DNA from: a virus
Taxonomy: Duplodnaviria; Caudoviricetes
Virus record (IMG/VR): IMGVR_UViG_3300044618_002542
Span: 1 to 59,900 of that record
Length of the DNA: 59,900 nucleotides
Reading direction: 5' to 3' (one strand)
The notes beneath the pieces were generated by a model. It was not told the origin of the DNA. It saw only the letters and a list, made by a program, of their open reading frames with translations, and searched no databases. Every line of letters starts with the position of its first letter. Position 1 is the stretch's first letter. The position numbers and the translations under genes are program-made. Positions 15,918 through 58,181 of this stretch are shown here, piece by piece.

Positions 15918-16171
15918 TCGGGTGCGGAAGCTGGCACGATTGCGGGAGCGTTTCTTACGTCAAGGCGGCAGAAATCGCAATTCGGAAAGAACTTGAAATC
16001 CGGGAGGGACAGCAATTTGCCGGATTTTTGCATCAGCTTTGCAAATTTGACCACCTTAAAGCCGCGGTTCTTGTCGCCGACAACGACACCTTTACTGGCA
16101 GTCGTTTAATTAGGGCGAACATCTCGCTCAAATTTGAGTTTTTTACTCGTCCACCGGAGTCGAATGAATGA
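15866..16171 (+). CDS. Hypothetical protein
   Basis: Fills the gap; stop overlaps the next start. Confidence 0.5.
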   Translation: MVESENNQDEIRRFAKVVGCGSWHDCGSVSYVKAAEIAIRKELEIREGQQFAGFLHQLCKFDHLKAAVLVADNDTFTGSRLIRANISLKFEFFTRPPESNE

Positions 16172-16497
16172 ATTCCGACGTTCACGCCCCGTTCATGAAA
16201 ATCGGCCCGGCGACGCTCAAGCGAGTTGCCAACGAAAACTGCTTTATTGAGTGGGAGGTCTGGCACGAAATTGAAGAAATTGGAGCGATCCAGTTTTTTG
16301 AGGACGGATCACTTCACGCTCGAAAAGTAAATCGGTACGGCGATTTGATTTACTCGATTGTGAATCTCTCTAGCTGGGTTCTGCTCCCAGTCCCGGTTGT
16401 TCTGATCAGATTTGCAACTATCGCCATTCTTGCGGCAAACGGGATTGTTTGGTCGGAAGACCGATCGACGATTGACTCCATTTTTACAGAGGATTGA
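16168..16497 (+). CDS. Hypothetical protein
   Basis: GGAG RBS, operon packing. Confidence 0.6.
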   Translation: MNSDVHAPFMKIGPATLKRVANENCFIEWEVWHEIEEIGAIQFFEDGSLHARKVNRYGDLIYSIVNLSSWVLLPVPVVLIRFATIAILAANGIVWSEDRSTIDSIFTED

Positions 16498-17047: not shown

Positions 17048-17116
17048 GGATCGGTAGCTCAGAGGCAGAGCTAGGGGTTGTACCCCTGGTCGCAGGTTCG
17101 AATCCTGCCCGATCCA
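17048..17116 (+). tRNA. tRNA-like gene with a non-canonical anticodon arm (5-nt loop TTGTA), no encoded CCA
   Basis: Acceptor GGATCGG/CCGATCC+A, D arm GCTC/GAGC with GG, T arm GCAGG-TTCGAAT-CCTGC. Confidence 0.8.
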
Positions 17117-33893: not shown

Positions 33894-34109
33894 CTATAAC
33901 GACTTTTTATCAATGTCGCCAAGTATTTGAGTTTTTTCAGTTGCGATTTTCGACAATCGGATTTTCCCGTGCTGGACTTGAAGCTCAAGCCGCGCGGAAA
34001 AAAACTCGTTGATTTCAAGCTGTGACCGGATCGTCTTTGCGAATTCGGTCAGGACGCTGAATATCAACGACTCGTTTTCATCTTTCGCCATAGCTCGATT
34101 GTCGGTCAC
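33894..34109 (-). CDS. Small protein resembling DUF2292/YezD-like regulators
   Basis: Helix followed by FSARLELQVQHGKI beta-hairpin; sits just upstream of the attenuator. Confidence 0.55.
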   Translation of the reverse strand: MTDNRAMAKDENESLIFSVLTEFAKTIRSQLEINEFFSARLELQVQHGKIRLSKIATEKTQILGDIDKKSL

Positions 34110-44600: not shown

Positions 44601-45151
44601 TAATCAAACGCCTCTACTGTTGCGTTTTCAATTTCTTCGCCGGTCTTTGTCGCGTCGTCAATCGCTTCGCGTCTCGCTTCGCTTGCTGCGTTGATTCGTG
44701 CGGCTGTTGACGCAATCGCAAGCTCGCGGCCCTTGCGAAATTCAACGTCGCTAATCGTCGGCTGGCTTGCGAATCCTTCGAGCGTCCAACGCGGACGCCT
44801 TTCGACGCCCCAGGATTTCATCGTTTGAACCCTGCTTGGGGTGAACACGGCTGGATCGATTTGACCTAAAGCGTCAAGGATCGCCTGAACCTTTGGCTTC
44901 CCGAAGTCATCACCGCCGATAAGAATCTGGTAGAAGTCCTCGTATCCATTCCGGATCAAAGACTGCTTCATTTCTTTGAGCGTTGACGAATCGAAAACGT
45001 GAGCAATTCGGTTCAGTTGAACCCACGCCGTGTCGTCTCGCGACTTGTCGGCCGGGATTCTGCGTTCGACCGTTTTGAGAAGTTGGTCAAGGATTGCTTC
45101 TGCTGGCTGGGTCCAATCAATCGATTCGGACATTCTGTTCCCTCTGTTCAA
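44600..45151 (-). CDS. Hypothetical protein
   Basis: Operon packing. Confidence 0.65.
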   Translation of the reverse strand: MNRGNRMSESIDWTQPAEAILDQLLKTVERRIPADKSRDDTAWVQLNRIAHVFDSSTLKEMKQSLIRNGYEDFYQILIGGDDFGKPKVQAILDALGQIDPAVFTPSRVQTMKSWGVERRPRWTLEGFASQPTISDVEFRKGRELAIASTAARINAASEARREAIDDATKTGEEIENATVEAFD

Positions 45152-45383
45152 TCTTGACTTCTAGGCAATAGTCGCCGATCAATCGATCGGCTGAGAGTTT
45201 CTTGTAATCGCTTTCAAGCAAATAAAGCCTTTGCTCGACCCTTGAAAATCGACGCCCAAGATTGCACAGCAAGCAGAATAGGAAAATCGACAGACCGATA
45301 TACCAAATCGCCGTCAAGTCCCCGTTAGTTGCGCGAGACAACTCTTCATAGAGTTCCGGGCTCGACGGATTCGGCTGCGACAT
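45117..45383 (-). CDS. Small single-pass membrane protein
   Basis: One hydrophobic segment; GGAGGGG RBS. Confidence 0.55.
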   Translation of the reverse strand: MSQPNPSSPELYEELSRATNGDLTAIWYIGLSIFLFCLLCNLGRRFSRVEQRLYLLESDYKKLSADRLIGDYCLEVKIEQREQNVRID

Positions 45384-45500: not shown

Positions 45501-45812
45501 TCATTTTGTTTTCACCAAGCTTTCCAGGTGTTCGACTCGTTCGCGTAAATGCTGACGATCAGCAATACACTCGCTGTTCGCGGTCAGTAATGATTCGAGT
45601 TTTACCTCGATTTTGCTTTTGTAGTCAGAGAAAGCCGACCGCGAATCGACCAAATCCTGCCGCGTCTCTTTTATCTGCGATTCCATCAAGCCGAAGTTGA
45701 CGCGAAACAAAAAGCCGATGGCCCCGGTCAGTGTCGAAGCCCCGACGGCGATTGCCCACGGAACCCATTCGACGATTGACTGCCCTGGGTGCGGAGGTTG
45801 TAAATCGGTCAT
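45501..45812 (-). CDS. Single-pass membrane protein with coiled coil (holin-like candidate)
   Basis: TM segment WAIAVGASTLTGAIGFLF followed by a heptad-like region. Confidence 0.55.
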   Translation of the reverse strand: MTDLQPPHPGQSIVEWVPWAIAVGASTLTGAIGFLFRVNFGLMESQIKETRQDLVDSRSAFSDYKSKIEVKLESLLTANSECIADRQHLRERVEHLESLVKTK

Positions 45813-47416
45813 TTCGCGAGTCCTCTGCTCTGTAGTTCGCGGCCTAAAGACTGGGCGAAAGCTTCCGGGGAGGGGAATACTGCGCCGGCCCCTCGCATCG
45901 CTGCGAAAGCGGCTTTGGGGCTTCCAGGGGGTGTTGGCTCACCGCCGGCGGCCGATCCGGGAACCATTCCTGGCGGCATTCCCGGTTGCTGAGGCGGGTG
46001 AATCTTCGGGTTGGCCAAGATTTCGTCGTCCGCATCCGGCCGGGCCGATCCGATTATCTGATAAAGCTCGTCCGACTTGATCTTGAGCCCCATTTCGTAG
46101 GCTTTTCCGATGGCGTCGAGTCGTTCGCGGACGTTATCGGATTCGGTATCAATGACGAATTTGACGCCGATATGCGCCGACTTCGGAAAATTCCAAAGCT
46201 GCATCGGCCGCAAAATATCGGTGGTGATCGCTTCCTGAAGCTTCACCGCGTCATAACTGAGGATATCGCCAAGCGTCGCTAAGTGTGCGTCGGCAACCCC
46301 TGAACCCATCCCGGTTGCGTCCGCTTCGCTTGAAAGCGTTTGGCCAAGGATATATCGCTTGATCTTGTGGCCAAAATACGTCCGGATTATCTCAATTGTC
46401 GTATTGACCCCGCCGAGCCCCGGTTCGACAAGTTGAGGCATGTACCGGTCAGAATCCTCGCCGGCGGGAATCGGTGCAAGAATCACTGTCCGCCCGCCAC
46501 CCATCGCGGCGTAAGCGGCTTTTTCCGTCTCGATTTTCGCTTTTTGATTGCCGCTTTGATACGGCCAAATCTCAATCCCAAATGCGGCCCGGTCCAGGTA
46601 CTCGATAACCCGCTGCAAACACTCGATTTGGGCGTACCACGTCCAATAAATCCGATCGCGAATCCCGACCCCGTGGATTCGGCCGGCCATGCGGGGCTGA
46701 TCCCACGGGCCGTCTTCAATTAAATGCTTGTGGACCGCGACGGTGGCCCGCTCCCATCGGTTTAACCAGTAAACCAAGCCGGATTCGGTTGCCTGAATCC
46801 TGGCTCGGCCTCTTTCGTCCCTGTTGCTGGGGAGTTCTGGCCGGAATGCGGACGAAACACGGATCCCGATTTGGTCGGGGTCGATATCGTGGGATCCGTC
46901 GTCGTACCGAAAAACAAGCTTATCTCCGTGCCGCGGCTCCCATCGGCGAATGACCGTTCGCCATTTTCCGCCGATGTTTTTCGCCCCGTACTGATTGGCG
47001 ACGGCATAACGGCCGTACCAGATTGCTTCCTGCATTACCCGCCGATATTCCGTGAAATACGGCGTATTTTCCAAAATCGTCGTCAGCGCCGCGGCCAAAT
47101 CTTTTTGTTCTTGGCTCTTTTCGTCATCCGTGGCTAAGTGCCACGGACAAAGGGCGACGGTTCGCTGCCGACCTTCGACGCACTCCATGATCCCGCAATC
47201 GGCCCGCATCCTCTGAGCATTTGCTCTGCTGTCTTGCAGAGCTTCATCCATATTCAGGTAGCTTTTGGACGAAACGCCAAACCGGCCCGATGCCGTGTGA
47301 ATATGGGGAACGACATCCATCCCGAAATTCGGCGGCGCCCCTGTCCCCTTGGCTGGATCGCGCAAAGACGCCTGAATTATCGACGCTGGGATCATGCGGG
47401 GGTCGATTTCGGCCAT
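45809..47416 (-). CDS. Portal protein, Mu gp29/DUF935-like
   Basis: AIWYGRYAV and ILGQTLSSEA...GVADAH motifs; 535 aa, downstream of terminase. Confidence 0.85.
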   Translation of the reverse strand: MAEIDPRMIPASIIQASLRDPAKGTGAPPNFGMDVVPHIHTASGRFGVSSKSYLNMDEALQDSRANAQRMRADCGIMECVEGRQRTVALCPWHLATDDEKSQEQKDLAAALTTILENTPYFTEYRRVMQEAIWYGRYAVANQYGAKNIGGKWRTVIRRWEPRHGDKLVFRYDDGSHDIDPDQIGIRVSSAFRPELPSNRDERGRARIQATESGLVYWLNRWERATVAVHKHLIEDGPWDQPRMAGRIHGVGIRDRIYWTWYAQIECLQRVIEYLDRAAFGIEIWPYQSGNQKAKIETEKAAYAAMGGGRTVILAPIPAGEDSDRYMPQLVEPGLGGVNTTIEIIRTYFGHKIKRYILGQTLSSEADATGMGSGVADAHLATLGDILSYDAVKLQEAITTDILRPMQLWNFPKSAHIGVKFVIDTESDNVRERLDAIGKAYEMGLKIKSDELYQIIGSARPDADDEILANPKIHPPQQPGMPPGMVPGSAAGGEPTPPGSPKAAFAAMRGAGAVFPSPEAFAQSLGRELQSRGLAK

Positions 47417-47482: not shown

Positions 47483-48451
47483 TTACCGGCCTCGATTTGG
47501 CTCCCCACGGTCGGGTTCGCCCCGGTTTGGTTGCGCGAAAAGCCTCTCGGGCAGGGTCGACCGTGTATAGGATCGCCGAATCGCCCTGCCCCGTTCGCCA
47601 ACCGGCGTAAATTCTGACTGGCGAAATGGTCCTTCCCCGCCCATTCTGGCGACGGTTCGCGTCCTGAATCCGGCGGCCGTCGCTTTCCTCGGGACGTAAT
47701 CGCCGTGCGACTGAATAAGGCGGTAGGTGTGCTGATGGCTCCAAACCGACCCACGGACGCGAAGATAATCCCAGACGGCCCCGCCGGCGGACTGTGCGGA
47801 CGCTCTCGAAAAATCGTGGTATTTCCTGACGGGAACGTCGTAATAGGCGTAGGTCTGCCCCGGACCGGATCGGCCGCCGCTGGAAGTCACTCCCAGGAAA
47901 GTGACGTACAAAATCCCGCGGGTTCTCGATTCCGGCTCGAAGAAATACCCGTAGACGTTGGTCGATCCGGGGGTCAGCCGCATCGCGTCCATCATTTCCG
48001 CGAATTGCTGCGGATCGTATGCGGCGCCCCTGCCGAATAATCCCCGCGGCTTTTCCGGCTCTGGGGGCGGAGGGGCTGCCGGTGATGGCGGCGCGGGTGG
48101 CGGCGGTCCCGGTGGTGGAGGGGCTGCCGTCGGCCTGCTTGGGTACGTTATCTGTGGCGGCGGTGATGGCCATTCCCGAATCTGTATCGGCGGGGCTCCC
48201 GGCCGCCAGTCCGGCGCCCGTTCCTCCCGTTGCTCCTGCTGCTGCCTTTGCCGAAAAACAAGTTCAGCTAGCCGCCGGGCAACTGCTCTTGCGAAATCCT
48301 GAGCGGCGACCGGCCTGAACGATCGGCGGCCGATTGTTTGCCGAATGTACGGCCCGGTTTCGGTTTCCGGCGGCCGTCCGGTTACCGCTTGGCTAATAAT
48401 CCCGCGGACGGTGCGGCCGGCCGATTTTGCAAGGTTGAACAATCGGCTCAT
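47483..48451 (-). CDS. KTSC-domain protein with a Pro-rich linker
   Basis: STNVYGYFFE...LYVTF...YAYYDVP..Y..F..A.SAG. Confidence 0.75.
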   Translation of the reverse strand: MSRLFNLAKSAGRTVRGIISQAVTGRPPETETGPYIRQTIGRRSFRPVAAQDFARAVARRLAELVFRQRQQQEQREERAPDWRPGAPPIQIREWPSPPPQITYPSRPTAAPPPPGPPPPAPPSPAAPPPPEPEKPRGLFGRGAAYDPQQFAEMMDAMRLTPGSTNVYGYFFEPESRTRGILYVTFLGVTSSGGRSGPGQTYAYYDVPVRKYHDFSRASAQSAGGAVWDYLRVRGSVWSHQHTYRLIQSHGDYVPRKATAAGFRTRTVARMGGEGPFRQSEFTPVGERGRAIRRSYTRSTLPERLFAQPNRGEPDRGEPNRGR

Positions 48452-49851
48452 CGGTATTGCCTGTCCCTTTTGTCACGGATCCGCTGAAGGGCGACCACGG
48501 CCCCAAATCGTTGCGAGTCGACCGTCTGCCGTGTCTTCGTCGCCGGCTCCCCTGCCGACATCATACCGCTTGCCAGCTTGTTAAATGCCCCGGCCGTTGC
48601 ATCCACTTGGTCGTCGTGAGCGAATTCCGGGAAAGCGGTCAACTCATCAATCCAATCTGAATTCCACGGCGCCGATACAATCCGGATATTTCCGGCCTCT
48701 GCCTGAGCGGACAGCCCCATTGCCCGAACGATTTTCGCCTCCCCTGGCAGTTTTTCCCCGCCGACCATCCGGCGGCTTGCACCTACTGAAACGTTATCAA
48801 TGAATGCCGGGAAGCCTACCAGCATTTTAACGAACATCTGCGAAACTTCCTTTCCGCCCGACCCGCCTTCCTGCTCACCGAATACCAGAACCTCGTTTTG
48901 GTACTTTCGCGCATCATCCCTGGCGGTCTGCAGAATGACCTGATTTCGGTCGTGATAACTCCATTGGCCACGTTTTACGTCCTCGACGTAGAAGATCCCG
49001 CGACTATCGACCGCCATCAGGACGCCCGCCGAATAGTCGCCGTCCCCCTCGGTGGAAGCCCGATCCCAGTACCGGACCCGTTGACAGTCCCTCGGGACGT
49101 GGTCGACAAATTGAAACCACTCCCGGCGGAACATCAGCCCTTCGATATCGACGAATTCGCCTTCGAGTTCCTGGGCGGACAATCGCGAAGAATACCGGCC
49201 GCGAATGTTTTCAAAAAATTCCTTCGGCAAGAACGGGTTGTCAATCGTTCTTGCCCGGATGAGGCCGGTGTTATTTTTCGGCTTGTATGGCTTGCCGTTC
49301 GCCGTTACGCATCCCTCGAAATAATCTTCATTTTGTCCTAGCGGTTCAAAGCATTCGGTGAACGTCCAGTGTTTCGTCCCCCTGGGTGTGAACGTCAGCC
49401 ACAGCGGCCCCATTTTGCCCTTGTAGCGAAGCGTCGGGATAATCACGTCAAACGCGGCGCGGCTTGTCAAACTGGCTTCATCGATCCAGACGCCAGCTTT
49501 TGACGGCCCGGCCAGTTTGTCCGGCACCTCGGCCGATCGAAAAACAATCGACGCGACCCCGCGGTCGGAGGTTCGCCACCAAATCCTGGGGTACGGTGAC
49601 AGGATTTGGCGAATGTACACGTCCGTTTGCTTGGCTACTTCCTCGAACGTCGGGAAGGTTGTTTCCCGGACGACCCCAGCGTCAGGGGATAAGGCGGTAA
49701 ACTGATCGCCCGATTTCGCGTATTTTTGGACGGCGCGAGCCCCGATAACCGTCTTACCGACACCGCGGCCCCCGCAAAAAGCACGAATCCAGGTTTTCAG
49801 GTCGATAAAACCGGCTTGCTTGCGGTAGATCGGAAACGGCCTGACTTTCAT
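48448..49851 (-). CDS. terL: Terminase large subunit
   Basis: GGRGVGKT, WIDEAS, TFTP, DNPFL; nuclease YWDRAS and HDDQVDA. Confidence 0.93.
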   Translation of the reverse strand: MKVRPFPIYRKQAGFIDLKTWIRAFCGGRGVGKTVIGARAVQKYAKSGDQFTALSPDAGVVRETTFPTFEEVAKQTDVYIRQILSPYPRIWWRTSDRGVASIVFRSAEVPDKLAGPSKAGVWIDEASLTSRAAFDVIIPTLRYKGKMGPLWLTFTPRGTKHWTFTECFEPLGQNEDYFEGCVTANGKPYKPKNNTGLIRARTIDNPFLPKEFFENIRGRYSSRLSAQELEGEFVDIEGLMFRREWFQFVDHVPRDCQRVRYWDRASTEGDGDYSAGVLMAVDSRGIFYVEDVKRGQWSYHDRNQVILQTARDDARKYQNEVLVFGEQEGGSGGKEVSQMFVKMLVGFPAFIDNVSVGASRRMVGGEKLPGEAKIVRAMGLSAQAEAGNIRIVSAPWNSDWIDELTAFPEFAHDDQVDATAGAFNKLASGMMSAGEPATKTRQTVDSQRFGAVVALQRIRDKRDRQYR

Positions 49852-50406: not shown

Positions 50407-51393
50407 TCACTTTACCGCCGGGGATTCCAGCATTTTTGCGACCTTGGCCCCGGTGAGTCCGGGGTACTCGTTTTTCAGCGCGGAGGCAATTTCGCCGGGC
50501 TTCATGCCGTCGACCGCACAAGCGGCCACCCGCTCGACCACGTTATCAATTTCGGCGTGCGGTCCCCTCTGGCCGGCGGATTTCGCCCGCTGAAACTGCT
50601 CGTCCTCCTGTCGTCGCATTTCGGCCAAGCGATCGGCGGGGGAGGCTGCCAGGGAAGGTAACTGCCCGTCAATCGGCATTCCGAGGAAATCGGCCCGCTC
50701 CTTGACCTGCTCGACGCTAACCCCCTTCATCCGTGCGATTTGGGCAGACGGAACCCGCTGCTCGATCAATGAATCGATCGACTCGGGGGCGATCTTCGCC
50801 GGCTTCGGCTTGCTCGGATTCGCGTACCGGTTTCGTTTGGTACGCTCGGACCATTCCTTTTCAGTCTGTTCGACTTTTCGCCGATAGGCCGGTGAAGTCC
50901 AGGTTTTCCGGTCGTAATGAGTGCCCGGCTTTTCGTATTCTTCTCGCACCATCCGAACGTCGGCAAATCCGTACTGTAGAGCGATTTGACGATCTGAAAC
51001 GCCTTGGACCTCAATGAGCGTCTTGATCGATTCGGGGTAAACGATCTTCAACGGCTTCACGTCGCCGATCGCCGACCATGCGTTCCAAAGCTGATGACTG
51101 CCGGCTGGGTCGGTGTTTGAAGCGTCGATTTCAATCCCTTGGCTCCAATCTGCCAGGGTGTGTTCAAATCGGTCAATCGCCAGGACTAGCGGCTTGGCTT
51201 CCATTTCTGCTTCGGCCGTGTCGCATAGATCGATCAAATCGGCCCACGCATTCGCGACGGCTTCGGAAATTGTCTTTCGTTCAGCCCCCCGCCAGTTCAC
51301 AAGCGGAGCCGATTCCTCGGGCATTTCGTTCCACTGGTCGATCGTCGCTTGGGCTCTAGCGATTTGGTCGGTTAGTTGTTGTCTGGTCAGCAT
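50407..51393 (-). CDS. Protein with repeated HTH-like units
   Basis: ESIKTLIEVQGVSDRQIA, ESIDSLIEQRVPSAQIA and GMKPGEIA repeats. Confidence 0.65.
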   Translation of the reverse strand: MLTRQQLTDQIARAQATIDQWNEMPEESAPLVNWRGAERKTISEAVANAWADLIDLCDTAEAEMEAKPLVLAIDRFEHTLADWSQGIEIDASNTDPAGSHQLWNAWSAIGDVKPLKIVYPESIKTLIEVQGVSDRQIALQYGFADVRMVREEYEKPGTHYDRKTWTSPAYRRKVEQTEKEWSERTKRNRYANPSKPKPAKIAPESIDSLIEQRVPSAQIARMKGVSVEQVKERADFLGMPIDGQLPSLAASPADRLAEMRRQEDEQFQRAKSAGQRGPHAEIDNVVERVAACAVDGMKPGEIASALKNEYPGLTGAKVAKMLESPAVK

Positions 51394-51426: not shown

Positions 51427-51460
51427 AAAACAAAACCCCGCCGAATTTTAGCCGGCGGGG
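51427..51460 (-). terminator. Intrinsic terminator
   Basis: CCCCGCCG stem followed by TTTTGTTTT on the minus strand. Confidence 0.7.
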
Positions 51461-51475
51461 CGATCGATCGGCAAA

Positions 51476-51877
51476 TCAAAGCCCGAAAAGCTTGAGAATC
51501 GCCGGAAGATATTTCATCACAAGCTCGAAAAACGCGGCCCAATCGCGAGCCATAAGCGTACCGTCGGGGGCCTCTTCGAGTTCGCCGGAAGTCTCCATTT
51601 CGTGAAGAACATTGTCAACGATATTTTCTTTCAGCCGCGGCCGGCGACCGTCACGGAAGATCCCTTCCAGCCGGCGGCGCTGCATCGGCCGAAGGTCGGG
51701 ATTTTGGTCGATTGACTCAAGAATCGCCGCTTCGACTTCCTTTCGGTTGACCGCTTGGGGCTGGCGAATCGCTTCCGGTTGCTCCTTGTCTTTCCACAAA
51801 GCTTCAAGTTGTTCTTGAGGTGCTGGGACTGGTTTCGGTGCTGGCCGCTTGGGCTTCGGCTTGGATTTTGTGACCAT
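51476..51877 (-). CDS. Hypothetical protein with a C-terminal amphipathic helix
   Basis: DWAAFFELVMKYLPAILKLFGL. Confidence 0.7.
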   Translation of the reverse strand: MVTKSKPKPKRPAPKPVPAPQEQLEALWKDKEQPEAIRQPQAVNRKEVEAAILESIDQNPDLRPMQRRRLEGIFRDGRRPRLKENIVDNVLHEMETSGELEEAPDGTLMARDWAAFFELVMKYLPAILKLFGL

Positions 51878-51884
51878 TTTTGCC

Positions 51885-52808
51885 TTAGAACTTGGGGGAA
51901 CGAACGATCAGAAACTCTTCGTCCGTTCGCTTATCGACAATTCGAAAATCGGCAAACGGGTTCGAGGGGTCGGGGGTTGGTGGCGGGTCGACCGGATCCG
52001 GTTTCCCGCCGGGGACGCGAAGCATTACTTCATCAGAGGGGCGCACCTTGTTTTTCACGATGTAGCCAAGCGACCTGGACTGAGCAAAGTCCGCTTCGGC
52101 TTGCCACGCCTTGCGGGCTAGCGATTGCTGATTGATTTCCGGCCTCATCAGAGCCCCGGCCGTCTGAACGTGAGGATGCCCCAATGCGTGCCCGATTTCG
52201 TGCGCCATCGTCGTAGCGCCGAACCATAGTTGCCACGTCCGATCGGAGTCGATCCGCTGCTGCTTTGGCCGGCTGCACGAATTATCTGCGAGGTAAGACC
52301 ATGCTAGGGTTGACCCGCTGAGAGACGCCGCATCGCACCAAATATGTGCGCCGTCCTTCACCCATCCGGGGTTGGGGGTGATCAAGACATCCAGGGAGTG
52401 ATTCCAGCAATTCATCGCCGCGATCAACATCTGATCAACTTCGGCTTGGCTCAATCCCTTGAGGGCCTTGAATACCCTGCCGTATCGAAGTTTACCGCGG
52501 CATGACTGCGGCCAGTTCGCTTCGGCCGGCTGATCCGAAGCGTAGAGCCGAACACCTGCAGAATCGACCGGGAAATCGGGGAAACCGCACCGGGGTTCTT
52601 CGATGATCGCCGAAAATTCCGGACTATCGCCTTCGTGGTCGACTTTCGACCGCATGAAAAGCTGATAGCTTTCGATCGCCGTTTTGACCGCTTGGTCGGT
52701 CAATTTCAGAAGCGGCAAGTCTTTTTCCGCTATCCCGGTCGGGGCTACCGGATTGTTGAAATGCCCCAAATCGTACAAGCGGCGGATAATTTCGGCGGAT
52801 CGCATCAT
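51885..52808 (-). CDS. Matrixin/MMP-like (M10) zinc metalloprotease with a cysteine-switch prodomain
   Basis: PRCGFPD, HEIGHALGHPH, Met-turn ALMRP. Confidence 0.88.
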   Translation of the reverse strand: MMRSAEIIRRLYDLGHFNNPVAPTGIAEKDLPLLKLTDQAVKTAIESYQLFMRSKVDHEGDSPEFSAIIEEPRCGFPDFPVDSAGVRLYASDQPAEANWPQSCRGKLRYGRVFKALKGLSQAEVDQMLIAAMNCWNHSLDVLITPNPGWVKDGAHIWCDAASLSGSTLAWSYLADNSCSRPKQQRIDSDRTWQLWFGATTMAHEIGHALGHPHVQTAGALMRPEINQQSLARKAWQAEADFAQSRSLGYIVKNKVRPSDEVMLRVPGGKPDPVDPPPTPDPSNPFADFRIVDKRTDEEFLIVRSPKF

Positions 52809-53416
52809 TTCTTCCCGATCAGTTCATTAACTTTGGCGGTAACTTCGACGGCCTTTTCAAGCGTGATTTTGTCGGCCGATCGCTCGACCCCTTGGGAAAT
52901 CGCGATCAAAAACGTTGACATTTTGGCGGCGTCCATCGGCCCGCCCGTCGCAATCTTTTCCGCGGCTTCTGAACCTACGCGGGTGCGGAAGGTTTCCCAC
53001 CCTTTGACCAATGATTCGGCGGCCGATTTGGTGACGTTTGCGGCATTATCCGGCGGCACTTCGCCGCGCTGGACCGCTTCACCGACCTGCTGGTAGATCG
53101 TCGCGATGATCCCGGCCCCGTCCCTGTCGTTTTCGCCCCTGGCCCATTCATCGGCCTTAACGCTCAAGGCTTCGTCGGGGCTCTTGGGCGGTTCCGGCGG
53201 CGTCGGTGGGTTTGGTGGGTTTGGTGGGTCCGGATTCGGATCCGGCGGTGATGCCGTCCGTAAATCGGCAACTGATGACGCCCTGGTAAGGATCGGCGTC
53301 CCATCACCCGATTGCGTCAAAACGAAATAACCCGCGTCGGTGATGACGACGGCGGGTTCGGTGGAAAACGCGATCGCGGGGAATGCGATCGCGAACAAAA
53401 TCAAGGCTCGTAACAT
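52805..53416 (-). CDS. Exported protein with a Pro-rich linker
   Basis: Signal peptide MLRALILFAIAFPAIA. Confidence 0.7.
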   Translation of the reverse strand: MLRALILFAIAFPAIAFSTEPAVVITDAGYFVLTQSGDGTPILTRASSVADLRTASPPDPNPDPPNPPNPPTPPEPPKSPDEALSVKADEWARGENDRDGAGIIATIYQQVGEAVQRGEVPPDNAANVTKSAAESLVKGWETFRTRVGSEAAEKIATGGPMDAAKMSTFLIAISQGVERSADKITLEKAVEVTAKVNELIGKK

Positions 53417-53451
53417 TGCGCGTCCGTGGGCTAGCGTCGCGGTTGGGGTAA

Positions 53452-53871
53452 TCAGCGTATCGACGTTCGGGTCGATCCAAGCAAGCCTAGCGGCCCGCGT
53501 CTACTGACTTGATCGATTCTTTGGCGTCCTGGGGCTTGGATCGCAAGAATTCGCTGTTGAACGGCGGACTGAGTAAAGCAGGCACCGCCGGCGCATTCCG
53601 CCACCCCGCTTCTTATTCGGATCCGCTGGACCTGTGCGGGTTGCACCTTAACCGCCTGAATTCTTTGGATTTTCTGGACCTGTTGAATTTGAACCGGCTG
53701 AACTTTTACTGCCTGGACGGCTTGCAATTCATAAACCGGATCGGCCTGGATCAATTGAACAACCTGGTCACCGTGCCCGCCGGCTTCGGAAATCGTCGGC
53801 AATCCAATCGCAACAAAGCAAACGGCCACAATGGCCAGCAAACCTAAAAAGCGTCGCAACTTCCCTAGCAT
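53452..53871 (-). CDS. Exported Gln/Val-rich low-complexity protein
   Basis: Signal/TM segment, QAVKVQP repeats, CAGGAC. Confidence 0.65.
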   Translation of the reverse strand: MLGKLRRFLGLLAIVAVCFVAIGLPTISEAGGHGDQVVQLIQADPVYELQAVQAVKVQPVQIQQVQKIQRIQAVKVQPAQVQRIRIRSGVAECAGGACFTQSAVQQRILAIQAPGRQRIDQVSRRGPLGLLGSTRTSIR

Positions 53872-53872
53872 A

Positions 53873-54373
53873 TCACCAGTCTCCCAGGAACAGTAATTTA
53901 GCCACTTCACCGCGTTCCTGATCGGTAAGTGGCTCCAAATCCTTCGGCATTTCGCCGCTTAGAATCGAACGCATGACCTTAGACTTCTGCTCTGCGGTCA
54001 GCGTCGCCGATCCGTCGAGCACGATTCCGCCGGCCGAATTTTGAGCAGAATGACATTTGGCGCACTTCTGGGCCAGGATGGAATTCACCGGGGCCGATCT
54101 CGATTCGGCGATTGATTTTTCGGCTTGAAGAAACAAGCGAAATTTCTTCAATAGCTCGGCGTCTTCATGGTCCGCCGATTGTCCCATCCTAGCAGACTCG
54201 ACAAGCACCTGAGCCCGATACGGCGCACCGACGAGGTAAAGCACCTGCGGGGCGGCTTTTTGCACGACCGCATACTCTACCGATCGCTGAACCTGCTGAA
54301 CCTGATAACAATCGGTCGCGGTCGCGGGGACGGATGCAAACAGGACTGCCAGGAGAGTTACAAATCGGATCAC
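53873..54373 (-). CDS. Exported planctomycete-type monoheme cytochrome c domain protein
   Basis: Signal peptide; ILAQKCAKCH...GGIVLD...ILSGEMPK...LTDQE (CxxCH plus distal Met). Confidence 0.85.
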   Translation of the reverse strand: MIRFVTLLAVLFASVPATATDCYQVQQVQRSVEYAVVQKAAPQVLYLVGAPYRAQVLVESARMGQSADHEDAELLKKFRLFLQAEKSIAESRSAPVNSILAQKCAKCHSAQNSAGGIVLDGSATLTAEQKSKVMRSILSGEMPKDLEPLTDQERGEVAKLLFLGDW

Positions 54374-55656
54374 GGCTGCGATCTCCAGTCTTGGACCGAT
54401 CGCACCGCTTGGGCATAAATCGATTCCCAGGACGTTCTGGGGATCGTGAATCCGTGGGCGAGGGCGATCAACCGGGGGTGAACGGGTTGCCCGCTATTCT
54501 GAGCGTATCCGATTGCTTTTGTCAAATCGTCGGGGATTACGCCGACTTCACGGGCTGCGGTTTCGATCGTCAACGGCGAGTCGTAAAGCTTGACCGTCGA
54601 AACAAAATCGGCGACGGCTTCGCGGGGCGGCTTACCCGTCACCGCTTCGACAATCGCCGCGAATTCCTTTCGGTTTTCGCGTAGTTCGTTCTCTAGGTCA
54701 GACAGGTGAAACGACTCGATTTTCCGCTGCGTGGTCTTGTCGCTGGCGTATAGCTCGGCCCCGGCCCCGATCAGTTCCCGAACCTCGTTTGATTTAACGT
54801 CGATCAGCCCCTCGGCATGGCAAGCAATACACGAAACGCCGTTTCGAATTTCGGTTGCGTTGTGACGAACTCGGGTGTAGTCGCTCGCCACGTCCGGCGG
54901 CGCCGCTTCCTGTCTTTGGCCGGCGGCGTTGCTCAATAGATAAACCTGCAAAGCCCCGCGGGTGCCGGTCGCCGTGTGGATCTTCGGCACGCCCACAATC
55001 CATTCTTCGGCCTCATGCTGAAAGCTGCCGTCGGGCCGAAGCGTCGGGTCGGTTCGGTCGTTGATTGTTGACGAATCCCGCGTCCCGTAGGCGTAACCTT
55101 GACGAACTCCGAACGACTCAATCCATCGTTTCTTCGATAGGATCACCCCGGAATTCCCTTCGATCAAACCGAACGACTGACCGGCCGATCGGGACACGCC
55201 GACCCGTGACAGAAAATCATCCCTGGTTGCCGGCGGGGCGCCGAATAGCAAATCGTAATAACTGGTCGATTCCTTCGCGTCGGTCGCGAACGTAATAAAC
55301 CAATCGGCCCGGATCACCAGAGATGGCCGGCCCTTCGCGAAAACTGCGTAAGGGTTTCGGGCTGCGACAATCGGGAATCGAGATTCCCAGCCGAATGCCG
55401 CGGTATCGATCCAATAAAGCCCTTCGCCGGCCGGGTTTGGTTTCTGATAGTCGACGATGGGCTCAAGGGATAGCGACGGCAGGATCAGACGGAGGGCTGC
55501 CAGGGTGGGTTCGTGTCGGTCCGGCGGAAGGTGGTTGACCGAAAAGTAATAAGTCGTCGCCGGATCGAGCCCGCTAGAATCGCGGTGGGCGGTCGCCGCG
55601 GCCCCGTCGAGGACGGGAAGCACGCCGGCGAGTAAAAGATAGATAATGGTCAGCAT
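54370..55656 (-). CDS. Exported protein with a c-type heme motif
   Basis: Hydrophobic N-terminus; IRNGVSCIACHAEG. Confidence 0.75.
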   Translation of the reverse strand: MLTIIYLLLAGVLPVLDGAAATAHRDSSGLDPATTYYFSVNHLPPDRHEPTLAALRLILPSLSLEPIVDYQKPNPAGEGLYWIDTAAFGWESRFPIVAARNPYAVFAKGRPSLVIRADWFITFATDAKESTSYYDLLFGAPPATRDDFLSRVGVSRSAGQSFGLIEGNSGVILSKKRWIESFGVRQGYAYGTRDSSTINDRTDPTLRPDGSFQHEAEEWIVGVPKIHTATGTRGALQVYLLSNAAGQRQEAAPPDVASDYTRVRHNATEIRNGVSCIACHAEGLIDVKSNEVRELIGAGAELYASDKTTQRKIESFHLSDLENELRENRKEFAAIVEAVTGKPPREAVADFVSTVKLYDSPLTIETAAREVGVIPDDLTKAIGYAQNSGQPVHPRLIALAHGFTIPRTSWESIYAQAVRSVQDWRSQP

Positions 55657-55703: not shown

Positions 55704-55979
55704 TTATCCGCCGACCGGCTCCCCGTCAAGCTTGCGCCGCGTCCGTTCGATTCGGGCCATCACCAGCCATTGACGAAACGGGGTCCACTCCCGAACCGCG
55801 GCGTCGATCGACTCGGATTGATTCGGCGTCGATCGAAGAAATTCGGCCACGTCGCGGGTCAAAACTGCAGAGGTTTCGATCTTGCGCCCGGAGCTATGTT
55901 TGGGCTTGCGCCCGGAGTTCGGCCGCTTTCCGCCGCGGTTGCGCCCGGAACTAGTAATTTCTGTTAATTGTGATTCCAT
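55704..55979 (-). CDS. Small DNA-binding protein (RGG.R..SGRKP arm plus RHH-like segment)
   Basis: NRGGKRPNSGRKP motif. Confidence 0.65.
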   Translation of the reverse strand: MESQLTEITSSGRNRGGKRPNSGRKPKHSSGRKIETSAVLTRDVAEFLRSTPNQSESIDAAVREWTPFRQWLVMARIERTRRKLDGEPVGG

Positions 55980-56200
55980 TACGATAATTCCTTATTTGAA
56001 ATAAATGGCCCGCGTTTTGTTATCCTGACGCATTCGCCGAATTTCTGAACTCCAACCCATTCGCCATCAAGCAAGCAAGGCACATTATTTAACGCAATAG
56101 CGTTTTCTTTCGAAGTCCAGTTTCCGCGAATGTTTTTATATTTTTTCCCGCATTGTTTTCGCCAAACAGAGCGATAAAAACTGTTACCTTCTGGCTTCAT
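55979..56200 (-). CDS. Hypothetical protein
   Basis: Operon packing, AT-rich. Confidence 0.5.
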   Translation of the reverse strand: MKPEGNSFYRSVWRKQCGKKYKNIRGNWTSKENAIALNNVPCLLDGEWVGVQKFGECVRITKRGPFISNKELS

Positions 56201-56528
56201 GGCCTGTTACCTGTTGCTTGTATTCAATCACAATTTGTCGGTTTCTTTCATCTCGCCAAACCTCGACGGTATCGAGATTTGATGCCAACATAAACGACGA
56301 ATCACCGATTCGGAGTTCTCCGCCATTTTGCTTGGCGAGAAGCATTAGCAAATATGCAGCATCGAATTCATTGACCTGCGGTCGATGCTGAGGCTGCGAC
56401 CTGTCGTTGCGAATCTTGTCAAGTTTCGAATCTTGCATAATGTCCCAGATCCGCCGGCAATCATCGCAAACATCCCGACCGCCGGCTGTTGTCGTGGCCG
56501 CGTCGCGGCAGTAATGGCAAGTTGTCAT
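56184..56528 (-). CDS. Hypothetical protein with an N-terminal CxxC..CxxC finger
   Basis: ATG 56528 with GGAG RBS overlaps the upstream stop; CHYC...CDDC. Confidence 0.6.
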   Translation of the reverse strand: MTTCHYCRDAATTTAGGRDVCDDCRRIWDIMQDSKLDKIRNDRSQPQHRPQVNEFDAAYLLMLLAKQNGGELRIGDSSFMLASNLDTVEVWRDERNRQIVIEYKQQVTGHEARR

Positions 56529-57115
56529 GATTTTTTCTCCGTCTTTCGAAATTCGATCGCCCAGACCCACGGATTCGCGGCCCACGATTCGGGGCCGTTG
56601 ATCGATTCCCAGAGTTCGCGAAACCAATCGCAAGGATTCTGACCGTAAGCGAGGTTTGAATGCGGGCACCCCTCGGCCATTGCATCGCCTCTGCTAATTT
56701 CGTTCAAACGCTCGACGCGAACGTCAGTAATTTCCAGCGTGATCCGGCTCGCGCGTCGCGGCATGTGAATCGACGGTTTCCAGCGGTCACACCCAACCAA
56801 ATGCTGATCAGTCGCGGCGTAAGCGATTTCGTTGCCGTGAATCGCAAACGTTTCGCGCACCCAAAGCCGATCGCCGGGCTTGCCGTGCGGGCAGTATTTC
56901 GCCATCGCCGAGCCGATTTCATCGACCTTCCATGCTTGCAATTTGCACTTTTGGCCGATGCTCCATCCCCACCCAGCAGACACTAGGCCGTCGCTGCCAT
57001 GCTCAAAAGGCTGCGGCTTAATCACCCGCCGCGTCTGCGTCTTTCGTCCGTGCAAAATCGCCCGGACCATTAGACCGCTGAATAGAATCGGCCGCTCTTT
57101 CGGTGTTGTAGTCAT
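56525..57115 (-). CDS. ASCH/PUA-like conserved phage protein
   Basis: ERPILFS..MVRAIL.GRKTQTRR, GDRLWVRETF, WKPSIHMPR.ASRI.LEI, NPWVWAIEF. Confidence 0.85.
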   Translation of the reverse strand: MTTTPKERPILFSGLMVRAILHGRKTQTRRVIKPQPFEHGSDGLVSAGWGWSIGQKCKLQAWKVDEIGSAMAKYCPHGKPGDRLWVRETFAIHGNEIAYAATDQHLVGCDRWKPSIHMPRRASRITLEITDVRVERLNEISRGDAMAEGCPHSNLAYGQNPCDWFRELWESINGPESWAANPWVWAIEFRKTEKKS

Positions 57116-57191
57116 GCTGTCACCTGCTTGAATTGCAATTCGTAAACCCAGACGCCTTTCGGCGTTTCGGCCTTCCGGCCTCGTCAGTGGG

Positions 57192-57578
57192 CTATTCCCA
57201 GCACCCTAACTCGGCAGCGACTCGGCAAAGCAATCGAGACCGCTCGGCGGCTTTAGACTCTTTGCTTATCCGATCGTCGAATAGTCGCGTCCCGATCGAA
57301 TTAGCGCCGGCACCGGAAAGCGTTACTTTGTTCGCTGGAATTTCGACGGCCCGACTGTAAACGTACTCAACCCCGTTGTGAACGATCGCCACGACTCCGA
57401 CCGCAGTCGTCACGGCTGGGTGCTTGTATGAGTTTGCAACCGCGCCGCCATGCTCAACCGAAACGCATACGCCAGTCTTTTTTCTTGCGGTCTCAATCGC
57501 ATCTTGAATCACGGCTGCTTGATTAACGATGCGAGTACGGCGGCGGCTACTTACGTTGCTAATAATTACATGGTTCAT
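57192..57578 (-). CDS. Hypothetical protein (early)
   Basis: Directly downstream of a sigma70-type promoter. Confidence 0.7.
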   Translation of the reverse strand: MNHVIISNVSSRRRTRIVNQAAVIQDAIETARKKTGVCVSVEHGGAVANSYKHPAVTTAVGVVAIVHNGVEYVYSRAVEIPANKVTLSGAGANSIGTRLFDDRISKESKAAERSRLLCRVAAELGCWE

Positions 57579-57635
57579 TTTCGCTATTCCAGTTATCGAT
57601 GTGAGGTTCTGTCGTTATCGCGTTTGCGATGCTTG

Positions 57636-57731: not shown

Positions 57732-58181
57732 TTACCGTCGCTTCGCACACGTCGGGCCGATCCCGCTCTTGATTGACTCGGGAGTCGTCAGCACCCGGTT
57801 ACACTTCCGGCATCGGCCCTCGAAGTGGTAGGTCAGCCCGATCGACCGGAAGTGCTCGACTTTCTGCAGAACGCGGATCAGGGCGTGGTACTGCTCGGTC
57901 TGGTATCGCTTCCACAAAAACACCCGGCCGTCATCCTTGACGAATCCGATCCCCAGATAGTCGGATCCGTTGTCCGCACCGATCAGAAGCGACAGGATCC
58001 GCTCGCCCGGTGCAAATTTCGCGTCCGCCGGCTGGGTTTCAATCCGGAATGTCCGGTGAGTCCCGCGGGCCGGGTTTTCGACAGTGATGATCCCGTTGTG
58101 GGTCTCGATCGCAAAGTGATTGACGACTTCAGCGAATTCGGCGGTTTCGGCGGTTTCGATTTCTGCGATCATGCTTTTCAC
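57732..58181 (-). CDS. DUF6011-like Zn-finger protein
   Basis: GRCRKCNRVLTTPESIKSGIGPTC. Confidence 0.8.
   Translation of the reverse strand: MKSMIAEIETAETAEFAEVVNHFAIETHNGIITVENPARGTHRTFRIETQPADAKFAPGERILSLLIGADNGSDYLGIGFVKDDGRVFLWKRYQTEQYHALIRVLQKVEHFRSIGLTYHFEGRCRKCNRVLTTPESIKSGIGPTCAKRR

Follow-up and report, generated by a model that had tools for sequence, protein, structure and literature searches.

Baculovirus matrix metalloproteases (MMPs) help to break down host barriers late in infection. Canonical endolysins await a membrane lesion in the cytoplasm. In Listeria, a phage-derived metzincin (Mtz) and a TIMP-like lipoprotein (Tim) have been linked, as outlined in the report, to wall change, higher sensitivity to phage-mediated lysis and virion release (PMC8235301). 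The locus described here lies in a 59,900-nt stretch of DNA from a tailed planctomycete phage, analysed as a whole and hereafter called the window. Its six genes, g1 to g6, form a conserved cassette in which a pair of exported heme-binding proteins is combined with a latent zinc protease of animal type, similar to matrix metalloproteases.

The protease, g5, shares with matrixin zymogens (M10A, PF00413; proMMP-1, -3, -9 and -10) a prodomain with the PRCGxPD switch, the HExxHxxGxxH motif, the Met-turn and the overall fold, and its top Foldseek matches cover both the prodomain and the catalytic domain. It differs from them in having neither signal peptide nor hemopexin domain, in its Pro-rich linker and C-terminal beta unit, in two extra invariant cysteines and in being encoded by a bacterial phage. 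Viral matrixin folds (granulovirus, entomopoxvirus, ascovirus, nudivirus) are also found among the structural matches to g5, but these insect-virus MMPs are secreted enzymes of eukaryotic viruses. By its description, the Listeria system likewise pairs a phage-derived metzincin with envelope proteins encoded together with it; however, Mtz is secreted, has a TIMP-like lipoprotein as partner and belongs to a Gram-positive host, whereas g5 is signal-less and accompanied by heme proteins (PMC8235301). No TIMP-like partner was recognised in the phage cassette.

The lack of a signal is a feature that g5 shares with canonical endolysins. The cassette as a whole recalls the holin-endolysin-spanin cassettes of Gram-negative phages in its position by packaging genes, its tight packing, its signal-less hydrolase and its small membrane or exported proteins. 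Unlike them, it has no muralytic domain and no recognisable holin or spanin family, and it encodes two heme c proteins. On the heme side, the closest known systems are cytochrome P460 and cytochrome c'-beta (PF16694) and the planctomycete PSCyt1-type proteins and receptor Ser/Thr kinases. In the latter, a PSCyt1 or Cytochrom_C domain directly precedes a g1-like domain, once behind a Pkinase domain. g2 is the free-standing counterpart of this PSCyt1-type cytochrome c domain. In the phage, by contrast, each of the two domains has its own gene, no output domain is present, and g2 has an extra N-terminal segment.

Gene content of the cassette

As the initial annotation had it, the minus-strand block 51476-55656 contains six closely packed open reading frames of one orientation and ends in a strong terminator-like hairpin (Table 1). 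The g1 stop overlaps the g2 start (GTGA), and the g4 stop overlaps the g5 start (ATGA). The hairpin with its T-run begins 15 nt past the g6 stop. The GC content of the cassette is the same as that of neighbouring genes. No promoter-like site was found before g1 in a sigma-70-type scan. The neighbouring up91 protein, which has no family match, is also encoded upstream of g1 in loci L001-L003 (97-100% identity over residues 10-91 or 14-91) and L005 (44%). Export signals were called from hydrophobicity only; on this basis, g1, g2, g3 and g4 have export-type N-termini, and g5 and g6 have none.

Table 1. Features of the cassette and its immediate surroundings in the window
Feature	Position	Strand	Description
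up91 (outside cassette)	55704-55979	minus	91 aa; conserved neighbour 47 nt upstream of g1
g1	54370-55656	minus	428 aa; export-type protein bearing one motif for heme c attachment
g1 CIACH motif	54817-54831		heme c attachment; behind the signal-like N-terminus
g2	53873-54373	minus	166 aa; signal-like N-terminus and class I cytochrome c domain
g2 CAKCH motif	54050-54064
g3	53452-53871	minus	139 aa from ATG at 53871 (likelier); 152 aa from GTG at 53910
g4	52805-53416	minus	203 aa; small N-domain after a signal-like N-terminus, then a Pro-rich linker and a conserved helical-looking C-terminal domain
g5	51885-52808	minus	307 aa; pro-matrixin-like zinc metalloprotease, no signal peptide
g5 PRCGFPD motif	52575-52595		cysteine switch of the prodomain
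g5 HEIGHALGHPH motif	52170-52202		zinc site; followed by Met-turn, Pro-rich linker and small C-terminal beta unit
g6	51476-51877	minus	133 aa; Lys/Pro-rich N-terminus, C-terminal amphipathic or hydrophobic helix
Intrinsic-terminator-like hairpin	51435-51461	minus	10-bp stem (8 G-C), 7-nt loop, then TTTTGTTTTG
328-aa gene (packaging module, not cassette)	50407-51393	minus	downstream of the terminator

The four motifs translate as first reported and are conserved across homologues; the CxxCH, switch and zinc-site motifs are therefore not due to chance. The g1 domain, here a protein by itself, belongs to a large family; no Pfam model covers this domain, yet it matches 5060 protein clusters. CxxCH is present in 31/31 close homologues and in 147/147 top representatives, and 26 of 44 longer g1-like representatives have two such motifs. 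The folds nearest to the heme region are those of the ligand-binding cytochromes P460 and c'-beta. The resemblance is weak; when profiles were compared, the CxxCH alone aligned with P460.

Across 13 g2 sequences, residues C104, C107, H108 and P143 do not vary, and M142 reaches a conservation of at least 90%. Met142-Pro143 is the likely distal ligand. A conserved FYFVGxPxR segment lies between the signal-like N-terminus and the cytochrome c domain. The initial annotation gave g2 a planctomycete cytochrome c pattern; its Pfam scores lie below curated cut-offs (PSCyt1, 16.4 versus 22 bits; Cytochrome_CBB3, 23.3 versus 27 bits). A search of the PDB with the 13-sequence profile retrieved CcoP (E 2.8e-5), a bc1 cytochrome c subunit and cytochrome c6. 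g2 comes after g1 in each of the 18 loci for which downstream sequence is available; in L001 this covers the first 68 g2 residues only. Together, g1 and g2 correspond to a periplasmic module of planctomycete cells, split here into two genes; in the cellular version, a cytochrome c domain and a g1-like domain belong to one protein. Such a neighbouring cytochrome c domain was found in 10 of 15 cellular g1-like proteins scanned. Fusion to additional domains is frequent in these relatives, namely to Pkinase (L038), FGE-sulfatase (L036, L037), DUF4384 (L032-L034) and TPR (L035). In L038, the cytochrome c and g1-like domains stand behind the Ser/Thr kinase domain. These cellular relatives resemble the sensor modules that receptor kinases carry.

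g5 is a zinc protease of the pro-matrixin type, latent and without an export signal. It matches Peptidase_M10 with 26.8 bits (cut-off 24), and its alignment to proMMP-1 (1su3) spans both the switch and the zinc site. The AF2 model (pLDDT 85.9) has proMMP-10, -1, -3 and -9 as best Foldseek matches in the PDB (E 1.6e-9 to 1.4e-8, 228-269 columns). Among viral proteins, the best structural match (A0A6J5RTD2, E 1.7e-12) is uncharacterised and comes from an uncultured tailed phage. Switch residue Cys74, HExxHxxGxxH and M221 of the Met-turn are invariant in 22 diverse relatives. So are C103 and C178, which would fit a disulfide made outside the cytoplasm. Within the family (n=107), 106 members have HExxHxxGxxH, 104 a switch-like motif and one an N-terminal hydrophobic stretch. 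No g5 homologues were found among GenBank phages.

Composition and hydrophobicity values agree with the initial description of g3 as Gln/Val-rich, of g4 as a Pro-linker protein and of g6 as ending in an amphipathic helix. g3 has a strongly hydrophobic N-terminal segment, which may simply be a signal peptide, and a low-complexity region rich in Q and V. It also has a pair of Cys residues, and its C-terminal tail is basic. Q+V account for 27% of g3 residues (33% past the hydrophobic segment), versus 9-12% in TerL, portal and g1. The g3 HMM retrieves close relatives only. A positional analogue with a signal peptide and a Q/V/F-rich segment follows g2 in ten loci (L004, L006, L007, L043, L044, L045, L047, L049, L050, L051), six of which (L006, L007, L045, L049, L050, L051) also show the basic tail; no g3-like ORF is listed after g2 in L008. 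g4 is confined to the type-A gene order and gave no PDB sequence match, no usable Atlas match and no family match. The conserved C-terminal helix of g6 (...DWAAFFELVMKYLPAILKLFGL) is predicted to be membrane-seeking: the final 18 residues have a mean hydrophobicity of 0.54 and a helical moment of 0.45 (Eisenberg scale). g6 has no signal peptide and does not reach the TM threshold. In both gene orders, g6-like proteins with a similar C-terminal helix adjoin g5, after it in L004, L042 and L010 and before it in L006, L045, L043 and L046.

Distribution and packaging neighbourhood

Synteny of the cassette is kept at g1 identities of 36-98%, in contigs from IMG/VR and from metagenomes and in planctomycete MAGs that contain prophages. 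g5 lies inside the cassette in 13/13 phage-type loci with both flanks (5 of type A and 8 of type B gene order), and the g1-g2-g5 linkage holds across these two gene orders and two terminase types. Conservation is highest in the heme proteins. The g1-g2 pair also occurs in a 595-kb phage (L152) with no g5 within 8 kb, and in L084 with no g5 in the 20 kb fetched downstream.

The initial annotation had placed the cassette just upstream of terminase. It does lie directly upstream of the packaging module and points the same way, but the 328-aa and small-terminase-like (TerS) genes stand between it and TerL. In L006, L007, L008, L045 and L049, the distance from g2 to the downstream TerL is 0.7-5 kb. 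The cassette is an accessory unit and is missing in 9 of the 12 relatives that share the 328-aa/TerS/TerL module. In cassette-less relatives, for example L074-L096, the 328-aa gene stays with TerL, and with the TerS-like gene where the HMM detects it. In two MAG contigs (L006, L045), the cassette sits at the edge of the phage region, beside host-like genes.

In agreement with the first reading of the window, no muralytic domain, endolysin, holin or spanin was recognised among 55 window ORFs with Pfam or 29 with PHROGs. PF00959, PF01510, PF01464 and PF01183 were each found in 0/3 MAGs with related prophages, whereas control genomes matched. No cassette protein of the window has a clear holin topology. 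The scanned ORFs were mostly at least 110 aa long, and roughly half of the ORFs in the window matched no family, so a divergent endolysin could hide there.

Candidate functions of the cassette

Our preferred but tentative explanation is that the cassette is a discrete, late, protease-based module for opening the planctomycete envelope, in which the heme pair would act as cofactor or trigger. The effector of the attack at the end of infection would be a protease and not a muramidase or amidase. g1 to g4 would leave the cytoplasm through Sec, and g1 and g2 would receive their heme from the cytochrome c maturation system of the host. g5 would build up in the cytoplasm, kept inactive by the Cys74-zinc bond, until a membrane lesion caused by g6 or a holin lets it reach the wall. 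There the switch would open and g5 would cleave peptide or protein components of the envelope, leading to virion release. The heme pair might sense the periplasmic redox or gas state, or supply the oxidant that opens the switch. Redox-linked lysis is thus our inference. The initial interpretation is partly supported, namely in gene content, in conservation among phages, in the site directly upstream of the packaging module and in that no conventional endolysin was recognised. In favour of lysis are this site, the lack of other recognised lysis genes, the pro-MMP-like and signal-less nature of g5, its linkage to g1-g2 and to g6-like proteins, and the Listeria precedent. Small proteins with one or two TM segments and charged tails, found 3' of the g3-like gene in L043, L044, L007, L045 and L050, also argue for lysis. 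Against it, heme proteins, the best-conserved part here, are not known from any lysis cassette, the matrixin fold is not known to cut peptidoglycan, and a clear holin topology was not seen in the window cassette. The terminator of its own and the absence from most packaging-module relatives are as expected of a moron, and the association of cellular g1-like domains with cytochrome c and Pkinase points to sensing, not lysis.

A moron that acts in periplasmic redox or sensing comes close to a lysis module in likelihood, given the accessory character of the cassette, its own terminator, its prophage-edge site, the g1-g2 pairs without g5 and the sensor-like cellular relatives. In this view, which takes up the alternative named in the initial annotation, a soluble, host-type g1-g2 module for heme sensing or electron transfer would reside in the periplasm with g3 and g4 and bring about host conversion, altering redox physiology or intercepting a signalling pathway, with g5 and g6 as processing or regulatory partners. 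This possibility gains from the fusion of cytochrome c and g1-like domains with Pkinase, FGE-sulfatase, DUF4384 or TPR in cellular proteins, from the paired CxxCH motifs of longer relatives, from the P460-type fold, from the variable presence of the cassette among close relatives and from the g1-g2 pair standing alone in a jumbo phage. Yet the P460 likeness is weak and limited to CxxCH in the profile comparison, no promoter-like site precedes g1, up91 ends just 47 nt upstream, and the cassette is directed into the late or packaging operon. Moreover, without an export signal g5 would have no contact with its exported partners while the membrane is intact. It is rather unlikely that two independent units share one variable slot, namely the heme pair g1-g2 in an auxiliary role, possibly joined by g3, and a protease unit of g5, g6 and g4 that alone serves lysis or egress. 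The different block order of types A and B, the loci L152 and, as far as fetched, L084, and translational coupling inside blocks (g1/g2, g4/g5) with none between them would fit. However, the retention of g5 in every phage-type locus with both flanks, at g1 identities down to 36% and with two terminase types, exceeds what slot sharing predicts, and GenBank phages yielded no g5 homologues.

Exported phage proteins often act in exclusion, and g5, signal-less and encoded by packaging and structural genes, could be packaged or released to digest the envelope at infection or superinfection while the exported proteins block further phage. Such an entry role is improbable: no cassette protein resembles virion proteins in PHROGs, a latent prodomain form would be an odd cargo, and we know of no role of heme proteins in exclusion. 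Least probable are recent host-derived passenger genes without phage function. Planctomycete genomes do hold both g1-like domains and matrixin-like genes, but phage-type g1 was found in 1 of 401 sampled Planctomycetota genomes, the 10 others with matches having distant multidomain paralogues. The closest Atlas clusters mostly carry a Uroviricota label. This survey, these labels and the synteny largely refute a recent host block, one not conserved in phages, that the initial annotation had considered; the invariant active-site residues and the absence of a GC anomaly also argue against it.

For protease-based lysis, a parallel case may be offered by L074, whose TerL is 54% identical. The same slot there encodes a 93-aa one-TM protein, two N-terminally anchored proteins and a 276-aa signal-less protein with weak papain-family protease likeness (E 0.05), in which the active-site and NSW motifs are aligned.

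Organization and conservation of the cassette

The six cassette genes, g1 to g6, are all minus-strand ORFs, tightly packed and closed by a terminator, as described in the initial annotation (Table). Stop and start codons overlap by 4 nt at the g1/g2 and g4/g5 junctions. The terminator is a hairpin located 15 nt past the g6 stop codon, with a 10-bp stem (8 G-C pairs) followed by a T-run. The predicted heme c motifs CIACH (g1) and CAKCH (g2), the cysteine switch and the zinc site of g5 translate as claimed. More generally, ORFs, motifs and domain searches bear out the gene-level description. The cassette has about the same GC content as the adjoining DNA. It is oriented like the packaging and late genes and lies directly before the packaging genes (a 328-aa gene, TerS and TerL). 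No promoter-like site was found before g1 in a scan with the sigma-70 consensus, from which planctomycete promoters may differ.

Table. Features of the window and domain architectures of cellular g1-like paralogues (L numbers denote related loci)
Feature	Position	Strand	Length	Remark
g1	54370-55656	-	428 aa	
g2	53873-54373	-	166 aa	
g3	53452-53910	-	152 aa from GTG	139 aa from likelier ATG at 53871
g4	52805-53416	-	203 aa	
g5	51885-52808	-	307 aa	
g6	51476-51877	-	133 aa	
Large terminase (TerL)	48448-49851			
Mu-type portal	45809-47416			
tRNA-Thr	17048-17116	+		anticodon TGT
Small ORF	3319-3504	-	61 aa	two predicted TM segments
Small ORF	45117-45383	-	88 aa	one predicted TM segment
Small ORF	16168-16497	+	109 aa	one predicted TM segment
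PSCyt1 + g1-like only			583 and 594 aa	
g1-like + DUF4384	L032-L034		about 810 aa	three proteins
g1-like + FGE-sulfatase	L036:3526-7014, L037:169-3597		about 1150 aa	two proteins
g1-like + TPR repeats	L035:4623-10061		1812 aa	
Pkinase, PSCyt1, g1-like, in this order	L038:2779-5637		952 aa	one protein

The window covers a tailed-phage genome, wholly or in large part. Besides the portal and TerL, it encodes a Mu Gp36-like protein, a D5-type primase, a RecD-like helicase and an N6/N4 methylase. No terminal repeat was found in it. The tRNA-Thr gene sits at the boundary between plus-strand replication genes and minus-strand late genes. In the structural region, a 2259-aa ORF (34106-40885, minus strand) has LPD1, the large polyvalent protein-associated domain 1, as its sole Pfam match (residues 570-640). 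Beside it, among the virion genes, a 460-aa protein (40954-42336, minus strand) matches InPase (PF18823, E 5e-43).

Upstream of the cassette, positions 56176-57600 form a variable patch, with many joints and replaced segments in relatives' contigs from four sequencing runs; within it, 56176-56455 is replaced by 102 other letters. An ORF overlapping the patch (56525-57115) matches phrog_874 (E 2.6e-75). Among the small upstream genes, one encodes a 149-aa protein (57732-58181, minus strand) bearing a C-terminal DUF6011 zinc-ribbon-like motif (E 3e-13). Of the four runs, two are DNA and the other two were presumed to be RNA but may be DNA; none is recorded as RNA. Their contigs span both the cassette and the structural genes and represent relatives roughly 90% identical to the window, hence they are silent on expression and timing.

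Related loci were collected from IMG/VR, species-representative genomes and metagenomes, the related-locus search using a 10-sequence alignment, and were then scanned iteratively with HMMs built from the cassette proteins. Wherever downstream sequence is available, g1 is followed by g2 (18 of 18 loci: the window, L001, which is partial, L002-L004, L006-L008, L042-L045, L047, L049-L051, L084 and L152), and g5 is found within the cassette in 13 of the 13 phage-type loci with both flanks. This conservation in phages sets the cassette apart from the recent host-derived block that the initial annotation had considered.

Two gene orders are observed. Type A, g1-g2-g3-g4-g5-g6, is that of the window, L002, L003, L004 and L042, and the split MAG contigs L005 and L010 are consistent with it. 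In type B, g5 is directly upstream of g1 (L006, L007, L008, L043, L045, L046, L047 and L048). A g6-like protein with a similar C-terminal helix adjoins g5 in both types; g4 is confined to type A. A small signal-bearing protein rich in Q, V and F follows g2 in ten divergent loci, with a basic tail in six; no such Q/V/F-rich ORF was seen after g2 in L008. In L004, the type A order is found at 55% g1 identity, beside a different terminase type.

The hosts are planctomycetes. The loci were found in Planctomycetaceae, Pirellulaceae and Planctomycetota MAGs, and genomes annotated as Roseiconus, Novipirellula and Pirellulaceae contain relatives of TerL. In IMG/VR, at least 418 contigs are TerL-related.

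Predicted heme proteins and their cellular relatives

g2 starts with a signal-like N-terminus followed by a conserved FYFVGxPxR segment. Across 13 sequences, C104, C107, H108 and P143 are invariant and M142 is at least 90% conserved. Searched against the PDB, the 13-sequence profile retrieved class I cytochromes c (CcoP, E 2.8e-5; QcrC, the bc1 cytochrome c subunit; cytochrome c6), the matches covering positions about 105-176. By its sequence, g2 has the class I c-type cytochrome pattern, with CxxCH and a distal Met in a predicted small helical domain. With the single sequence, Pfam scores were below cut-off (Cytochrome_CBB3, 23.3 vs 27 bits; PSCyt1, 16.4 vs 22).

g1 has no Pfam, PHROG or NCBIfam match (Pfam to E≤0.1). 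An S-C-x-x-C-H-x-x-G motif is present in all 31 close homologues. Whatever the function of the cassette, the g1-like heme domain represents a large family without a model: among 1.84 billion representatives, the g1 profile matched 5060 clusters at E≤1e-3 and 2355 at E≤1e-30. All of the best 147 representatives contain CxxCH. In this set, the 103 proteins of at most 480 aa each have exactly one such motif, 96 of them with a signal-like N-terminus, and 26 of the 44 longer ones have two. The Atlas clusters nearest to g1 are unnamed and mostly labelled Uroviricota.

The AlphaFold model of g1 is confident (pLDDT 93.4, pTM 0.92). A Foldseek search of the PDB with this model returned no match at E≤0.001, and the g1 profile had none at E≤1 among PDB sequences. 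When the g1 alignment was compared with 15 planctomycete P460 sequences using hhalign, 10 columns aligned at a probability of 33-50%, and the CxxCH alone was aligned. From the model, the heme region of g1 may be P460/c'-beta-like in fold, an unconfirmed assignment that does not make it a family member. Complex predictions for g1 (residues 20-428, 35-row alignment) and g2 (residues 20-166, 13 rows) with two hemes, run without controls, scored 0.34, 0.00 and 0.01, the mark being 0.32; these scores neither support a complex nor speak against binding.

Distant cellular homologues align across nearly the whole of g1, and in them the g1-like domain is immediately preceded by a PSCyt1 or cytochrome c domain. 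At E≤1e-5, the g1 profile matched 11 of 401 sampled Planctomycetota genomes; one has a prophage-type copy and ten have multidomain paralogues, at most four per genome. Ten g1-like paralogues were scanned for domains (Table). One of them, a 774-aa protein, gave no family match, and in the FGE-sulfatase and TPR forms Pfam matched nothing within the first 320-350 residues. FGS is described as a binding domain in one published account (PMC7159879). In cells, the g1-like domain is coupled to Ser/Thr kinases and to further domains of the sensor type, a predicted domain grammar that typifies extracytoplasmic sensor modules. In the phage form, the cytochrome c and g1-like domains are encoded by adjacent, translationally coupled genes. 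Judging from these architectures, g1 and g2 together are a split form of the cellular planctomycete module. The phage g1-like proteins are compact, stand-alone versions, suited to learning the ligand of the domain.

A predicted pro-matrixin without export signal

g5 scores 26.8 bits against Pfam Peptidase_M10 (PF00413; gathering cut-off 24). Of the 107 homologues found, most have a precomputed PF00413 match, and one, from a Stieleria-type genome of 10.8 Mb, bears the annotation of a matrixin-family metalloprotease. In a phmmer alignment with human proMMP-1, residues 46-225 of g5 span the zinc site (HEIGHALGHPH) and the Met-turn, and PRCGFPD pairs with PRCGVPD of proMMP-1. Cys74 of this motif would be the cysteine switch that keeps the protease latent through a bond to zinc. 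C74, H203, E204, H207, G210, H213 and M221 are invariant across 22 diverse members, as are two extra cysteines, C103 and C178. HExxHxxGxxH is present in 106 of the 107 relatives and a switch-like pattern in 104.

The AlphaFold model of g5 (pLDDT 85.9) has proMMP-10, -1, -3 and -9 as its top Foldseek matches in the PDB (E 1.6e-9 to 1.4e-8, 228-269 columns), spanning prodomain and catalytic domain. Lone catalytic domains give TM values of 0.66-0.76, normalised to the target. Among viral models, an uncharacterised protein from an uncultured tailed phage ranks first and insect-virus MMPs come next; g5 had no match in the GenBank phage collection. Unlike animal MMPs, which have an export signal, g5 has none. 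A hydrophobicity scan of the 107 relatives for a secretion signal found an N-terminal hydrophobic 10-mer in one, and it is not signal-peptide-like. Taken together, the Pfam score, the proMMP-1 alignment, the invariant residues, the Foldseek matches and the lack of a hydrophobic N-terminus argue that g5 is probably a genuine pro-matrixin-type zymogen made without an export signal.

Possible roles of the cassette

To our knowledge, almost nothing is known about phage lysis of Planctomycetes. Our literature searches retrieved no description of planctomycete phage lysis genes, or of phage c-type cytochromes linked to a metalloprotease. The six cassette proteins show no known muralytic domain (Pfam, PHROGs, NCBIfam), and no holin or spanin PHROG was matched, a negative that holin diversity makes weak. 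The proposal that the window has no conventional endolysin elsewhere held within the sensitivity of Pfam (55 ORFs) and PHROGs (29 ORFs), which revealed no muralytic domain, holin or spanin family. Among the cassette proteins, a strong hydrophobic segment is found in g3 only, at its N-terminus, and g6 has an amphipathic C-terminal helix. g4 has no usable Atlas match and none in the PDB better than E 0.1. A lipoprotein or o-spanin assignment of g2 or g4 was rejected because the lipobox Cys is absent at the predicted cleavage site. Away from the cassette, any of the three small TM ORFs (61, 88 and 109 aa) could be a candidate holin; they have no informative PHROG match.

We tentatively favour the reading that the cassette is a late module which opens the envelope by means of a protease, the heme pair serving as trigger or cofactor. 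Its site before the packaging genes and the lack of the usual lysis families count in favour, as does the pairing of the signal-less hydrolase g5 with g6, a protein with a membrane-seeking helix. Small TM proteins with charged tails, encoded after the g3-like gene in five type B loci, count likewise. Phage_lysozyme, Amidase_2, SLT and GH25 were also absent from a six-frame search of the three 6-Mb planctomycete MAGs holding type B prophages (G001, G002 and G003, with L006, L007 and L008, respectively); 14 control genomes did yield matches, each family in 3 to 8 of them. Judged by these four families, the hosts seem to have few of the common peptidoglycan hydrolases. GH108 (PF05838) was found neither in these MAGs nor in the controls, which makes its absence uninformative. 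Further support comes from Listeria, for which one report describes a metzincin of phage origin that promotes phage-mediated lysis (PMC8235301), and from the cassette slot of L074, an IMG/VR locus whose TerL is 54% identical to that of the window. Encoded in this slot (L074:3925-7420) are a 93-aa protein with a single TM segment, proteins of 321 aa and of 276 aa (the latter signal-less), and two proteins anchored by a hydrophobic N-terminus. The 276-aa protein is weakly papain-family-like (cathepsin K, E 0.05, with the active-site Cys and NSW motifs aligned). The L074 set may represent a second type of protease-based cassette carried by phages of planctomycetes.

Several observations count against lysis or egress. 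The cassette is accessory: of 12 relatives that carry the packaging module and at least 5 kb of upstream sequence, 3 have cassette genes, two being near-identical to the window and one, L084, having g1 and g2 only. In the other 9, the slot is filled by tail-fibre-like genes, by integrase, repressor and replication genes, or by the L074 set. This patchy presence among close relatives and the cassette's own terminator are traits of a moron, and a periplasmic redox or sensing moron is an explanation only somewhat less likely than the favoured one; the cellular domain architecture also points to sensing rather than lysis. That g1 and g2 occur without g5 in a 595-kb uncultured phage counts against lysis as well. 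This record (LR756511.1), the single one with g1 in the GenBank phage collection, contains a g1-like ORF (612 aa stop to stop) directly followed by a g2-like one (246 aa), each with one CxxCH (L152:7125-9701). At this place, one of two reported in the record, no g3, g4, g5 or g6 HMM match was found within 8 kb on either side. That the heme pair and the protease are two independent units sharing one slot is rather unlikely, and a role in entry or exclusion is improbable. Host-like neighbours, which adjoin the cassette in L006 and L045, also count against lysis; functionless passenger genes from the host are very hard to credit given the conservation in phages.

Within the envelope-opening reading, a specific mechanism in which the cysteine switch is gated by redox chemistry is quite unlikely as formulated. 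In such a scheme, the host would mature both phage heme c proteins in its periplasm; one would have a ligand-binding P460/c'-beta-like site and the other would act as electron carrier. The pro-matrixin would be stored in the cytoplasm and its switch triggered after membrane breach, through oxidation or nitrosylation by the heme pair. The MMP-type protease would then lyse the protein-rich planctomycete envelope, at a time set by the periplasmic redox or respiratory state. In host cells, the g1-like heme domain would do the sensing for receptor Ser/Thr kinases. Should g5 be the lytic effector, whatever its trigger, the cassette would represent a protease-based lysis strategy with an animal-MMP-type zymogen switch. 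It would then bear on planctomycete envelope biology and provide a new class of enzymes for attacking cell walls of unusual make-up.

Finally, the host-like gene next to the L006 cassette, at the prophage edge (L006:3628-5808, minus strand), encodes a 726-aa Cys-rich protein with many CKPVWETKTKEICYTV-type repeats, which we take to resemble the planctomycete cell-wall 'YTV' proteins. Its place beside the cassette may be coincidental.
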